A stretch of DNA of 35,102 nucleotides from Patescibacteria group bacterium (GTDB lineage: Bacteria; Patescibacteriota; Minisyncoccia; 2-01-FULL-47-10; JBBTYX01): positions 1-35,102 of the forward strand of contig JBBTYX010000007.1 of assembly GCA_038078515.1 (NCBI GenBank), read 5' to 3'. A program made the position numbers and the translations under genes. Below, in pieces: positions 2,396-34,626 of the stretch. Position 1 is the stretch's first letter. Each line of letters opens with the position of its first letter. Under the pieces are notes generated by a model that saw only the letters and a program-made list of their open reading frames with translations, searched no databases and was not told the origin of the DNA.

Positions 2396-4009
2396 ATGCC
2401 TGATGGATCAAATCTTTTTGAAATAAAAGGGAAAAAAAACATAAAACATAGATTAGGTATAATATTTGATAATAGGCGGCTCAGGCTTGCCTTGATTTTT
2501 ATGTTTATAATAGGAGTTATAATTTTTTATCGTTTAATTTTAATTACTATTATAAATGGTAAGGAATACAAAGATATTTATATGAATAACCACTCTAAAA
2601 TTGAATGGATTTTACCTAAACGAGGAATCATATATGATTATAATGGTAAAATATTAGCAAAAAATAATATAGAAAACAAAAGGGAATATCCTTTAAAAGA
2701 AACAAGTAGTCATATAATAGGCTATATTAGCGAGCAAGATAAAATTGGAATATATGGAATAGAAGCAACTTACGAGGATTTTTTAAAAGGCGAGCGCGGA
2801 TTTACAAATTTTAACATAAATAATAAAGGAGAAATACAAAGTATTAAGGAGATAAAAGATGGAAAAGCAGGAAATAATTTGTATTTACATATAGATTATG
2901 ATGCTCAAGAAAAACTTTATAATGAAGTATTAAAACAGGTTATTGATAAAAATTCTCCGGGAGGAGCAGCTGTTTTAATAAATCCGATAAACGGCGCAAT
3001 AAAAGCTCTTGTAAGTGTTCCAAGTTTTGATAATAATTTTCAATCTAAAGACGAACTTGTATTAATTTTAAAAAGAGATGACGCGCCTCTTTTTAACAGG
3101 GCTATTTCAGGCGAATATCCTTCTGGCTCTACTATAAAACCATTTATTGCGGCAGCAGCATTATCAGAGAATATCATAGATCCTAATTTTAAAATGGAAA
3201 CAAATGGAAGTATTACAGTTCAAAGCATTTATAATAAAAATATAAAGTGGATTTTCAAAGATTGGAAAAATCACGGTTTTGTTAATATGGTAGAAGCCAT
3301 CGCGTATTCGAGTAATGTTTACTTTTACACTATTGGCGGAGGATATAAAGATATAGCGGGATTAGGCATAAATAAAATTGACAAATATTTGCAAAAGTTT
3401 GGAATGGGCAGTAAAACCAAGATTGATATTATAGGAGAAAGTAAAGGGCTTATTCCAAGTCCTAAATGGAAAAGCATAAATATTAACGAAGATTGGTATA
3501 TAGGCGATACATATAATACTTCTATTGGGCAGGGATTTTTACGCATTACTCCTATTCAATTAGCTTCTGCTACTTCTGTAATTGCTAATAGTGGCACATT
3601 ATATCAACCACAAATAGCAAGTAAGGTTGTATCAGATAATGGAGATATTATTTGGAAAAATGAGCCTAAAATATTACAAAAAAATATTATAAAAAAGGAA
3701 TATTTAGATATAGTAAAAGATGGTATGAGAAAATCTGTTACAATTGGAACAAATTGGCGTTTAAATGATTTACCTAAACCAGTTGCCGCTAAAACTGGTT
3801 CAGCAGAAGCAGGTAATAATAGCGAAACTCATAGCTGGGTAACAGTAATGAGTTTTTACGATGATTTACCAAAAGATGAAAAAGAAAAACCTTTTGTTTT
3901 ATCAGTATTAGTTGAAAATGGCGGTAATGGGGAAACAAGCGCTGTTCCTATTGCAAAAAATTTTTTATCGTGGTATCTTGATGATAAAAATAAAAGCCAA
4001 GAACAATAG
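2396..4009 (+). CDS. mrdA: Penicillin-binding protein 2-type transpeptidase (class B PBP)
   Basis: An N-terminal TM helix is followed, in the correct order, by the active-site triad motifs SxxK (GSTIKP), SxN (YSSN) and KTG (AKTGSAE). The position directly after mreB fits the elongasome. Confidence 0.85.
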   Translation: MPDGSNLFEIKGKKNIKHRLGIIFDNRRLRLALIFMFIIGVIIFYRLILITIINGKEYKDIYMNNHSKIEWILPKRGIIYDYNGKILAKNNIENKREYPLKETSSHIIGYISEQDKIGIYGIEATYEDFLKGERGFTNFNINNKGEIQSIKEIKDGKAGNNLYLHIDYDAQEKLYNEVLKQVIDKNSPGGAAVLINPINGAIKALVSVPSFDNNFQSKDELVLILKRDDAPLFNRAISGEYPSGSTIKPFIAAAALSENIIDPNFKMETNGSITVQSIYNKNIKWIFKDWKNHGFVNMVEAIAYSSNVYFYTIGGGYKDIAGLGINKIDKYLQKFGMGSKTKIDIIGESKGLIPSPKWKSININEDWYIGDTYNTSIGQGFLRITPIQLASATSVIANSGTLYQPQIASKVVSDNGDIIWKNEPKILQKNIIKKEYLDIVKDGMRKSVTIGTNWRLNDLPKPVAAKTGSAEAGNNSETHSWVTVMSFYDDLPKDEKEKPFVLSVLVENGGNGETSAVPIAKNFLSWYLDDKNKSQEQ

Positions 4010-11638: not shown

Positions 11639-11649
11639 ATTTTAAATAT

Positions 11650-11721
11650 TGCCGGGTCGTCTAATGGTAGTGACATTGGGTTTTGGTCCCAAGGATCGGG
11701 GTTCGAGTCCCTGCCCGGCAG
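11650..11721 (+). tRNA. tRNA-Gln (anticodon UUG)
   Basis: I folded the cloverleaf by hand. The acceptor stem is TGCCGGG/CCCGGCA with U1-A72 and discriminator G73, both hallmarks of bacterial tRNA-Gln. The anticodon stem is TTGGG/CCCAA with loop TTTTGGT, giving anticodon TTG. The T arm is CGGGG-TTCGAGT-CCCTG. CCA is not encoded. Confidence 0.85.
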
Positions 11722-11790
11722 CAGTTTTTAATAAAACGAACTTTAAAGCGACGGCTGTTTGCGTTTCATTTATTCAGGTTTCGCTTTTTT

Positions 11791-11819
11791 AACAATCGGT
11801 AACTCGGTTACCGATTGTT
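11791..11819. repeat. Palindromic element copy 1 (13-bp arms AACAATCGGTAAC, centre TCG; 21-mer core at 11795-11815), followed by a T7 run
   Basis: An exact inverted repeat read directly from the sequence. Its position after tRNA-Gln and the following T-run make it terminator-like. Confidence 0.9.
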
Positions 11820-11839
11820 TTTTTAATCAGTAACTCGTA

Positions 11840-11864
11840 ATCGGTAACTCGGTTACCGATTGTT
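11840..11864. repeat. Palindromic element copy 2 (core 11840-11860), preceded by a half copy ATCAGTAACTCG at 11826-11837 and followed by T5
   Basis: The 21-mer is identical to copy 1, and the right flank TGTT is shared with copies 1 and 4. Confidence 0.9.
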
Positions 11865-11926
11865 TTTCTGCGTTTGAGTAATTATTGCTTAAATTGTTTA
11901 AATATGTCAAGATATGTAATATGTAT

Positions 11927-13709: not shown

Positions 13710-13738
13710 TTGACAAAAATAATTTTTCGTATTAAAAT
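13710..13738 (+). promoter_or_regulatory. Consensus sigma70 promoter TTGACA-N17-TAAAAT. The yqeY ATG begins 7 nt after the -10, predicting a leaderless mRNA.
   Basis: TTGACA at 13710-13715, 17-nt spacer, TAAAAT at 13733-13738, ATG at 13745, no SD. Confidence 0.55.
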
Positions 13739-13744
13739 AGATAT

Positions 13745-14197
13745 ATGACGATTAAAGATCAAATTTTTGAAGATTTAAAACAAGCAATGAAAATGCGGGA
13801 AGTTGATAAGGTAACTGTTTTACGCACTATAAATTCAGCTATAAAAAATAAAGAAATAGAATTAAATAAACGAGAAAATGGTCTTAATGACGAAGAAACA
13901 ATATCTGTAATTGCCAAAGAAGCTAAAAAACGAAAAGAAGCGATTTTTGAATATCAAAAATGCAATAGAGAAGAATTATCGCAAAAAGAAGAAAAGGAAT
14001 TGAAGATATTGCAAAAATATATTCCAAAGGAAATGACTGAACAAGAAATAATAAATGAAGTGGATAAAACAATAAAAGAATTAAATCCTAATGGAATAAA
14101 GGATTTTGGTAGAGTAATGCAGGCTGTGATGGCTAAATTAAAAAACAGAGCAGACGGCGCGTTAGTTAATAAAATTATTAAAGAAAAGTTAAATTAA
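13745..14197 (+). CDS. yqeY: GatB/YqeY-domain protein
   Basis: The length and pattern are typical of YqeY: an N-terminal L..AMK....D...V.R......K, and a C-terminal GIKDFGRVMQAVMAKLKNRADGALVNKIIKEKL. Confidence 0.8.
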   Translation: MTIKDQIFEDLKQAMKMREVDKVTVLRTINSAIKNKEIELNKRENGLNDEETISVIAKEAKKRKEAIFEYQKCNREELSQKEEKELKILQKYIPKEMTEQEIINEVDKTIKELNPNGIKDFGRVMQAVMAKLKNRADGALVNKIIKEKLN

Positions 14198-14227
14198 ATA
14201 TTTAATTTCTCTTTAATAGTTCTTTAT

Positions 14228-14398
14228 AGCGCGACGCAAGAAATATAAGGTACCCTCCACGCCTTATAAACCCCACTGATGTACTTGCGTCGCGCGCTAA
14301 AAATACAACAAATGGCAGAGAACCTAGTACCAATCTTCCAAATGATGATCTCTCCTTTCAACATCATTAGAAGGTGGTTCTCTGTCAAGTCTTTTTTT
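14228..14398 (+). ncRNA. Candidate structured small RNA of unknown family: two long GC-rich hairpins and a downstream T7 run
   Basis: Hairpin 1 has a 12-bp GC-rich stem GCGCGACGCAAG/CTTGCGTCGCGC (14229-14240 / 14284-14295). It encloses an inner stem TATAAGG/CCTTATA with loop TACCCTCCACG. Hairpin 2 has an outer stem GGCAGAGAACC/GGTTCTCTGTC (14314-14324 / 14376-14386), an inner 6-bp stem and a 7-bp stem, and a 14-nt loop ATCTCTCCTTTCAA. A T7 run lies at 14392-14398. The region is locally GC-rich in an AT-rich genome and has no ORF of 60 aa or more. The strand is inferred from the T-run only. Confidence 0.4.
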
Positions 14399-14470
14399 AT
14401 CCTTTTATAATATAGAAGGGTAATTTCATTTTAGGCAAAGAGAAAAACAAGGTTCTATGTAATAATTTTA

Positions 14471-14500
14471 TTGACAAATGAGCTAATTTTAGTTCATAAT
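14471..14500 (+). promoter_or_regulatory. Consensus sigma70 promoter TTGACA-N18-CATAAT. The tsaC ATG begins 7 nt after the -10, predicting a leaderless mRNA.
   Basis: TTGACA at 14471-14476, CATAAT at 14495-14500, ATG at 14507. The geometry is the same as the yqeY promoter. Confidence 0.55.
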
Positions 14501-14506
14501 TAAGAA

Positions 14507-15109
14507 ATGGAACAAATCATTAAAAAAATAATTGAAATACTAAGCAAAGACGGAGTTGTTGTTTTGCCGACTGATACTGTTTATGGCATTTGCTGTTCAT
14601 TTGAAAGCATAAAAGCATATCAAAAAATATTAGCTATAAAAGGAAGAGAAGCTGAAAAACTTTTGCCTGTATTTGTTCATTGTATGCAAAAGGCAAAAGA
14701 GATTGCGTATATAAATAAAAAACAAGAGCAAATATTAAATGTGTTTTGGCCTGGGAGTATTACTTGTATTTTAAAATCAAAAATAAAAAATAAATTTAAC
14801 TTTCTTAACACAATTGCTATTCGTATTCCAGATAATAATTTATTGTTAAAAATTTTATTGGAATTTAAAAAACCTCTTTTTCAAACATCTGCTAATTTAT
14901 CCGGATTAAATCCAGCTAAAAATGTAGATGAGATACAAAAACAGTTTAAAGATAATTTTGTAAAGCCGGATCTTATTATTGATGGAGGAAATTTATCAAA
15001 AGACTTAAATTCAACAATAGTTGATTTAACTAAAAAACCTTATCGTATATTGCGTCAAGGGAAAAACTATATATTAGTCCAAAAAACCTTGGAACGAATA
15101 TCCTCGTAA
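14507..15109 (+). CDS. tsaC: L-threonylcarbamoyladenylate synthase, YrdC/TsaC type (t6A biosynthesis)
   Basis: YrdC-domain pattern: VVVLPTDTVYGICC ... IKGREAEKLLPVFV ... WPGSIT ... IRIP ... QTSANLSG. About 200 aa with no Sua5 C-domain. Confidence 0.8.
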   Translation: MEQIIKKIIEILSKDGVVVLPTDTVYGICCSFESIKAYQKILAIKGREAEKLLPVFVHCMQKAKEIAYINKKQEQILNVFWPGSITCILKSKIKNKFNFLNTIAIRIPDNNLLLKILLEFKKPLFQTSANLSGLNPAKNVDEIQKQFKDNFVKPDLIIDGGNLSKDLNSTIVDLTKKPYRILRQGKNYILVQKTLERISS

Positions 15110-34511: not shown

Positions 34512-34565
34512 TTTTTATGTGTTAGATTTTAGCTTCATTAGCTTTTAGCTTTGTTAGCTTAATTA

Positions 34566-34592
34566 GAAAAAAATCGGATTTACGAAATCTGA
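34566..34592 (-). terminator. Rho-independent terminator downstream of the partial Cys-rich paralogue
   Basis: The hairpin TCAGATTT-CGT-AAATCCGA (minus strand, one G-U pair) is followed by T8 on the minus strand (A-run at 34566-34573 on plus). Confidence 0.5.
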
Positions 34593-34626
34593 AATTAAAA
34601 ACCTAATAAAGCTAATAAAGCTAAAT

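Follow-up and report, generated by a model that had tools for sequence, protein, structure and literature searches.

What is the strongly folded, GC-rich segment that lies between the genes yqeY and tsaC on a contig of an uncultured Patescibacteria group bacterium, and what might it do? The stretch of DNA analysed here, called the window throughout, covers positions 1 to 35,102 of contig JBBTYX010000007.1 of assembly GCA_038078515.1, in nucleotides (nt), and the segment in question begins shortly after the stop codon of yqeY. An initial annotation, made from the letters alone, had described it as an orphan RNA candidate whose loops resemble the anti-Shine-Dalgarno (anti-SD) tail of 16S rRNA. 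The comparisons reported below make it very probable that the segment is a real structured RNA on the + strand. In our reading this non-coding RNA is about 160-190 nt long, has a defined structure and is specific to one clade, and by its sequence and structure it is a new RNA family. As to function, we tentatively favour a base-pairing RNA that would target Shine-Dalgarno (SD) sites, a reading that we hold to be possible but short of probable.

Fold of the element and its homologous copies

The + strand of positions 14229-14386 folds as two GC-rich hairpins. The minimum free energy of this fold is -63.6 kcal/mol, against -35.5 +/- 3.8 kcal/mol in 200 dinucleotide shuffles of the + strand (z -7.4), and the fold z-score on the - strand is only -2.7. 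Folding reproduced the 12-bp and 7-bp stems of hairpin 1, the 11-, 6- and 7-bp stems of hairpin 2 and both of the loops that had been read from the sequence by eye. The parts of the element and its immediate flanks are the following.

14206-14225, + strand: 20-mer UUUCUCUUUAAUAGUUCUUU, rich in pyrimidines, in the stretch from the yqeY stop to hairpin 1, near-identical in alignments of the three loci compared below
14229-14295, + strand: hairpin 1, composed of P1, P2 and a 3' junction
14296-14313, + strand: A-rich linker joining both hairpins
14314-14386, + strand: hairpin 2, 73 nt, bulged
14392-14398, + strand: U7 run 5 nt past hairpin 2, present as the T7 run of the initial annotation; it could mark intrinsic termination, though for this genome alone
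14401-14419, + strand: small hairpin rich in A and U, CCUUUUAU...AUAGAAGG, beyond the U run; by folding a possible second stop

Hairpin 1 is closed by P1, a 12-bp stem (14229-14240 with 14284-14295). Its inner stem of 7-8 bp, P2 (14244-14251 with 14261-14268), carries the loop ACCCUCCAC at 14252-14260, and in the window its 3' junction is 15 nt long (14269-14283, AACCCCACUGAUGUA) and includes CCCCACUGA at 14271-14279. Hairpin 2 has an outer stem of 11 bp (14314-14324 with 14376-14386), followed by a bulge of 8 nt on the 5' side with none on the opposite side. Two inner stems of 6 bp (14333-14338 with 14370-14375) and 7 bp (14341-14347 with 14362-14368) lead to the apical loop AUCUCUCCUUUCAA at 14348-14361. 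The 20-mer UUUCUCUUUAAUAGUUCUUU probably belongs to the transcript, either as a single-stranded 5' arm or as a processing site.

A search with the YqeY protein returned relatives clustered at 77-79% identity. The element was compared in three loci, namely the window and two metagenome contigs fetched as DNA (L097 and L098); YqeY proteins P0003-P0011, from some ten other close relatives, stand outside this DNA comparison. Both contigs have the gene order tgt-yqeY-spacer-tsaC as in the window, and no other fetched loci have tsaC beside yqeY. The yqeY-tsaC spacer of L097 holds one copy of the element, at about 1993-2151, and that of L098 holds two tandem copies, at 1995-2163 and 2193-2353. All copies are syntenic with yqeY. 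A covariance model made from L097 alone scored the second unit of L098 at 51 bits, the first unit at 41 bits and the window at 34 bits, and with this model all four + strand copies outranked every reverse-strand match.

Because MAFFT alignments of the copies were not structure-consistent, an alignment of four rows (A12: the window, L097 and the two units of L098) was made by aligning the copies to a model, R2. Standard pairs fill 93.7% of the pair cells of A12, against 36-50% when the 3' partners are slid by 1-3 columns, and both sides have changed in 29 of the 47 pairs, against 1-7 when slid. None of 500 shuffles reached the observed pairing values. The outer stem of hairpin 2 is an example, with 10 of its 12 pairs changed on both sides among the copies. 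The structured element that had been proposed is in this way kept, with covariation, in the copies of L097 and L098. The RNA is read from the + strand, because the fold z-score is -7.4 there against -2.7 on the other strand, the pair cells of the copies hold eight G-U cells against two A-C cells, the orientation matches that of yqeY, and the U run and the terminator-like hairpins lie on the + strand.

The relatives also bear on the architecture of hairpin 1. A segment that is unpaired in the window forms a third helix, P3, in both L097 and L098, with a P3 loop that reads CCCCACUGA, CCACUGA or CAACUGA. Because this helix forms in the two relatives, hairpin 1 is modelled as a three-way junction of P1, P2 and P3; in the window only a loop is left of the third helix.

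The tandem units of L098 (1995-2353) are 100% identical over about 95 nt comprising hairpin 2 and its flanks. The interiors of hairpin 1 (P2 and P3) have diverged between the same two units, with compensatory changes. This pattern suggests gene conversion, or differing selection on the two domains.

The initial annotation had called the element the most GC-rich and most structured non-coding segment of the window. It is indeed well folded, but not uniquely so: local GC reaches 0.50 in the tRNA-Gln spacer (11639-11920) against 0.46 at the element, and an AT-rich spacer at 34512-34626 has a fold z-score below that of the element, about -8 on both strands. This AT-rich intergenic stretch reads as a long inverted repeat. 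After the tRNA-Gln, at 11790-11860, there are two copies of a perfect hairpin, AACAAUCGGUAAC-UCG-GUUACCGAUUGUU, with a U run.

Promoters, transcript ends and a possible cis-acting 3'UTR

The host genome (G000) is 0.50 Mb in size, has 29% GC and is about 80% complete; its uncultured owner is a Parcubacteria-like member of the candidate phyla radiation (CPR). The element is present in one copy in this genome. As had been stated, a spacer of 309 bp separates yqeY, which stops at 14197, from tsaC, which has its ATG at 14507. The genes and promoters that frame the element are as follows.

13710-13738, + strand: yqeY promoter TTGACA-N17-TAAAAT, near-consensus, ending 6 nt before the yqeY ATG; the sole strong promoter upstream of the element
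13745-14197, + strand: yqeY, a GatB/YqeY-domain protein of 150 amino acids (aa; Pfam PF09424, E 7.5e-44)
14471-14500, + strand: tsaC promoter TTGACA-N18-CATAAT, downstream of the element, ending 6 nt before the tsaC ATG at 14507
14507-15109, + strand: tsaC, of the Sua5/YciO/YrdC type (Pfam PF01300)
L097 and L098, 1466-1501 and 2194-2232 / 2400-2455: promoter regions from the promoter scan

The arrangement of the yqeY promoter is repeated in L097 and L098, and yqeY is probably leaderless. On the tsaC side the promoter ends 6 nt before the ATG in the window and in L097, and about 25 nt before it in L098; because of the latter, a clearly leaderless mRNA in each of the three loci can be claimed for yqeY alone. 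A near-consensus promoter between the element and tsaC is found in each of the three loci, and the possibility that the element is a tsaC leader was rejected. The initial annotation had reached the same conclusion from the downstream promoter, which was located at 14471-14500.

Between the yqeY stop and hairpin 1, no promoter match of at least 9/12 was found in the three loci. Because no consensus promoter separates yqeY from the element in any of them, the simplest reading makes the element the 3' untranslated region (3'UTR) of the leaderless yqeY mRNA, or else an RNA that derives from this 3'UTR, and the earlier description of the element as an orphan is doubtful. A terminator scan did not call hairpin 2 with its U7 run, the loop being too long. 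Hairpin 2 of L097 and L098 is not followed by a U run, and a separate small terminator-like hairpin lies further downstream. A pairing of 9 bp between the conserved 5' flank and 14439-14447 was also considered and was rejected on finding that it is lost in L097.

The element might then be a purely cis-acting 3'UTR of yqeY, which would terminate transcription, shield the leaderless mRNA from 3'-to-5' exonucleases and insulate the tsaC promoter from read-through, with no target in trans. The start of the element 30 nt past the yqeY stop on the same strand, without an intervening consensus promoter in the three loci, is what this explanation expects, as are the U7 run that follows hairpin 2 in the window and the strict synteny with yqeY in all copies. 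However, the ordinary gene-end hairpins of this genome are simple perfect stems with short loops and a U run (e.g., 11790-11860), whereas the element keeps a three-way junction, a bulged hairpin and its CCUCC and CCACUGA loops through many compensatory changes. Its tandem duplication in L098 also argues against a role in cis alone, and so does hairpin 2 of L097 and L098, which lacks a U run and leaves termination to the separate small hairpin. We consider this explanation unlikely, although it deserves to be taken seriously.

The CCUCC motif and Shine-Dalgarno-led genes

The core of the ribosome's anti-SD sequence is CCUCC. The same motif is the only sequence feature of inner hairpin 1 (P2) that is kept in all four copies of the element, while its surroundings have changed; genome-wide it occurs 0.48 times per kb per strand, so that about 0.08 would be expected per unit. 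Its unpaired probability is 1.0 in the window, and it is fully unpaired in L097 too. Both window loops, which carry CCCUCC and CUCUCC, have an unpaired probability of about 1.0, and L097 has two CCUCC loops.

The host's own 16S rRNA gene (G000:C50:21313-22350) is cut at about 900 by a contig end, and its anti-SD tail is not in the assembly. In two order-level relatives the 16S 3' end is GGAUCACCUCCUUUCUA, and the comparison sequence chosen in the initial annotation was an appropriate one. The likeness of the second loop to this tail, which had been the main point of that annotation, holds for the window, where the hairpin-2 loop has 8 nt (CUCCUUUC) in common with the tail of the order-level relatives. 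It is stronger in L097, where 11 consecutive nt (CCUCCUUUCUA) are common to the two, but it is absent in L098 and so is not a feature of the family. Where present, the common stretch is displayed single-stranded in the hairpin-2 loop. The element itself is not a piece of rRNA, for it lacks helix 45 and does not lie in an rRNA operon.

In the only same-family genome, the 16S gene (L145, G001:C49) is broken near its 3' end by two insertions. These lie at about 2453-3350 and 3440-4007 and contain open reading frames (ORFs) for homing endonucleases of the LAGLIDADG type.

The scarcity of SD sites that had been noted for the window extends to the genome. A GGAG-type SD 4-mer stands upstream of 22 of the 412 ORFs. 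Among ORFs of 50 aa or more, no more than seven can be called SD-led with confidence, having a clear AAGGAG or GGAGG 4-10 nt before the ATG.

C73, 2699: SD-led ORF
C70, 3020-3289, - strand: SD-led ORF
C3, 14137: SD-led ORF
C46, 8449-9684, - strand: SD-led ORF
C5, 3170: SD-led ORF
Window, 29780: SD-led ORF
Window, 27236, - strand: SD-led ORF

This set includes rpsA (ribosomal protein S1), HU, SIMPL/DUF541, a NUDIX-dehydroquinate-synthase-like protein and hypothetical proteins. SD use is confined to a very small gene set that is in part highly expressed.

The initial annotation had suggested that the loops be paired in silico with all translation-initiation regions. In such predictions, SD-led starts were among the best partners of both loops, and for each of the seven SD-led start regions one loop or both reached or passed the 5th percentile of binding. 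For the hairpin-2 loop, the SIMPL start region (29780) ranks best of 414, at -15.9 kcal/mol, a value comparable to that of the 16S tail. With the exception of hyp151 and, marginally, SIMPL, the SD-led starts are predicted to be bound more strongly by the 16S tail of relatives than by either loop. Exact complements of the loops of at least 8 nt are common in this A-rich genome and lie mostly inside genes. The element was predicted to pair no better with the start of the yqeY or the tsaC mRNA than with random 60-mers.

In the SD-pairing reading that we favour, the element would be transcribed from the yqeY promoter as the 3' part of the leaderless yqeY mRNA, the transcript would end at hairpin 2 and its U7 run, and the element may be freed from the mRNA by processing. 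It would consist of a three-way-junction domain (P1, P2 and P3) and then a long bulged hairpin, and its pyrimidine-rich CCUCC loops may pair with the GGAG-type ribosome-binding sites of a few SD-led mRNAs, for example those of the SIMPL/DUF541 gene, HU and rpsA. Pairing of the loops would compete with the 30S subunit and would lower translation of the target, as do C-rich-loop small RNAs (sRNAs) of low-GC Gram-positives. A more ambitious version makes the element a trans-acting anti-SD mimic that sets the balance of SD-dependent against leaderless translation. The few SD-led mRNAs, those of rpsA and HU among them, would then be contested between the RNA and the 30S subunit, almost all the rest being leaderless or SD-less; we regard this version as rather unlikely.

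Several observations weigh against pairing with SD sites. In L098 both CCUCC motifs lie inside the P2 stem GAGGAGG:CCUCCUC, with an unpaired probability of 0-0.2, and the hairpin-2 loop is replaced by an A/U hairpin without C/U-rich sequence; because of these two changes, exposure of an anti-SD loop is not a conserved trait of the family. Any CCUCC sequence is automatically complementary to SD sites, and extended, target-specific pairing above chance was not found among the predicted duplexes. The best-conserved motif of the element (CCCCACUGA, CCACUGA or CAACUGA) has no role in a model of SD pairing, and the CCCCACUGAUGU motif has no standout complement anywhere in the genome. The covariation is drawn from the four rows of A12, which come from three closely related genomes, two of the rows from one locus, in an alignment that was itself fitted to the structure. 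Finally, a weak promoter belonging to the element is possible, because known RNA genes of this genome also lack near-consensus promoters; the promoter scan gave only 9/12 for RNase P RNA and detected none for tRNA-Gln and tmRNA.

Two kinds of known regulator resemble the element that we envisage. The Rsa RNAs of Staphylococcus aureus carry UCCC motifs (PMC2790875). Like the RsaE/RoxS (RF01820) and RNAIII-type C-rich-loop sRNAs of Firmicutes, which are multi-hairpin RNAs of 100-200 nt, the element belongs to an AT-rich host, does not appear to need a long seed and, in two of the three genomes (the window and L097), exposes C/U-rich apical loops complementary to GGAG-type ribosome-binding sites. 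Unlike them, it has as its motif CCUCC, the anti-SD core itself, where theirs is CCCC or UCCC, and it matches none of their covariance models, even at E<=10. It differs further by its three-way junction with a conserved CCACUGA loop, by the pairing of its motif in one relative (L098), by the probable lack of a promoter of its own and by a CPR host in which most genes have no SD.

The second kind are the 3'UTR-derived sRNAs of enterobacteria, of the CpxQ, SroC and DapZ type. Like these RNAs, the element follows closely on a stop codon, on the strand of the gene; the promoter scan showed no consensus promoter for it in the three loci, and its end would coincide with that of the mRNA, at the terminator. 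It differs from them in having a leaderless parent mRNA and a processing step that is only presumed, in the lack of an Hfq-type U-rich tail context in L097 and L098, and in its unrelated sequence and host.

The GatB-type domain of YqeY is, in GatB, a tRNA-binding fold. This brings in an explanation that we judge improbable, in which the element is a protein-binding RNA, acting as a scaffold, a decoy or an autoregulatory operator. Its candidate partner would be YqeY, or else some factor with specificity for the 16S 3' tail or for the helix of SD and anti-SD. P2 pairs an SD-like with an anti-SD-like strand in every copy, and in L098 the P2 helix GAGGAGG:CCUCCUC imitates the SD:anti-SD helix. The 11-nt copy of the 16S tail in L097 points the same way, and SD pairing leaves unexplained the motif that is conserved best, the CCACUGA of the P3 loop or junction. 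Leaderless mRNAs, moreover, offer no 5'UTR for an operator, which makes a site in the 3'UTR conceivable. However, yqeY of more distant relatives has no comparable structure downstream, and the copy of the 16S tail is missing in L098.

Known families, coding potential and distribution

With Rfam 15 at the gathering threshold, the only match in the whole window was tRNA-Gln at 11650. At E<=10 the region 14100-14520 gave noise only, at 11-23 bits against thresholds of 50-90, and at E<=1 the relatives L097 and L098 gave only two sub-threshold matches, on the wrong strand. The scan that had been recommended for the element was thus empty of family matches in the window, L097 and L098. The earlier statement that it could not be matched to signal recognition particle (SRP) RNA, 6S RNA, RNase P RNA or transfer-messenger RNA (tmRNA) is borne out by Rfam and by the structure. 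RNase P RNA and tmRNA were both found elsewhere in the genome. SRP RNA was rejected on the absence of a GNRA tetraloop, of the symmetric/asymmetric internal-loop motif and of helix-8 features in the hairpins, and of an Rfam match. For 6S RNA, RF00013 is unmatched in the genome, and the element has two independent hairpins with neither an end-closing stem nor a two-sided central bubble. A tRNA-like minus strand was dismissed as well, ARAGORN and Rfam having found no tRNA.

The SRP searches covered more than the element. RF00169 was found in none of 61 genomes (G000 and 60 class-level relatives) and RF01854 in none of five. The Ffh M domain (PF02978) was found in none of 21 genomes, the SRP54-type GTPases (PF00448, for Ffh and FtsY) gave no real match in 21 genomes, of which 18 have a completeness of 90% or more, and the G1...DTAGR motif was absent in a six-frame scan of G000. 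Controls responded in 12-14 of 14 genomes. The lineage appears to be without Ffh, FtsY and SRP RNA. The failure to find the whole SRP pathway may reflect a real loss in this CPR class or a blind spot of the search.

A highly diverged 6S or SRP RNA, unseen by Rfam, is very improbable. Neither 6S RNA (RF00013) nor SRP RNA (RF00169, RF01854) was detected in the genome, and about 170 nt is a 6S-like size, which would leave room for such an RNA. Against 6S stand the two independent hairpins, the unpaired ends and the missing two-sided bubble, and against SRP RNA the missing GNRA tetraloop and internal-loop motif, along with protein partners that were not found either. A housekeeping RNA would also be expected across the class, yet a covariance model from all four copies (R3) was negative in 149 relatives.

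We give equally little credence to a DNA-level element, such as a recombination or attachment site, a protein-binding palindrome or a repeat. The genome does have palindromic hairpins at 11795-11860, but the element is single-copy, its position within the transcription unit is conserved, and its large asymmetric bulges, its three-way junction and its strand asymmetry (eight G-U against two A-C cells, z -7.4 against -2.7) all speak for RNA. Least credible of all is a small protein or type I toxin-like module, the alternative raised in the initial annotation: the ORFs exist in the window (43/32 aa on the + strand, 54/47 aa on the - strand), but neither frame is kept in L097 and L098, where starts, lengths and sequences are others, indels between the copies have lengths not divisible by three (e.g., 16 nt inside hairpin 1), and substitutions track base-pairing and not codon structure. 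The probability that remains is spread over minor rivals and the unknown.

Beyond the three loci, a DNA search of 60 relatives returned only a chance match of 31 nt, and the regions downstream of yqeY in about 20 more distant relatives showed no comparable structure. The covariance models R1 (from the window alone) and R3 found nothing convincing in five order-level and 149 class-level genomes, in a search that scored 20 pre-filtered candidates per genome and in which weak homologues could be missed. A match of 22.8 bits in L151 was rejected, as it has neither the motifs nor the stems. Within the reach of these searches, the element occurs only in one clade of about genus rank, which three assemblies represent.

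The regulatory RNAs of CPR bacteria are essentially uncharted, and the element described here is a well-supported structured RNA in a 0.5-Mb genome in which nearly all genes have no ribosome-binding site and many are leaderless. If it is only a stabiliser in the 3'UTR of yqeY, it would be of local interest. If it does pair with SD sites, it would provide a simple control over the small SD-dependent gene set, including ribosomal protein S1 and HU, and it would work like regulators of known kinds, namely the C-rich-loop sRNAs RsaE, RoxS and RNAIII and the sRNAs derived from 3'UTRs. Either way, given further sequences, the element is a candidate new RNA family for Rfam-type curation.

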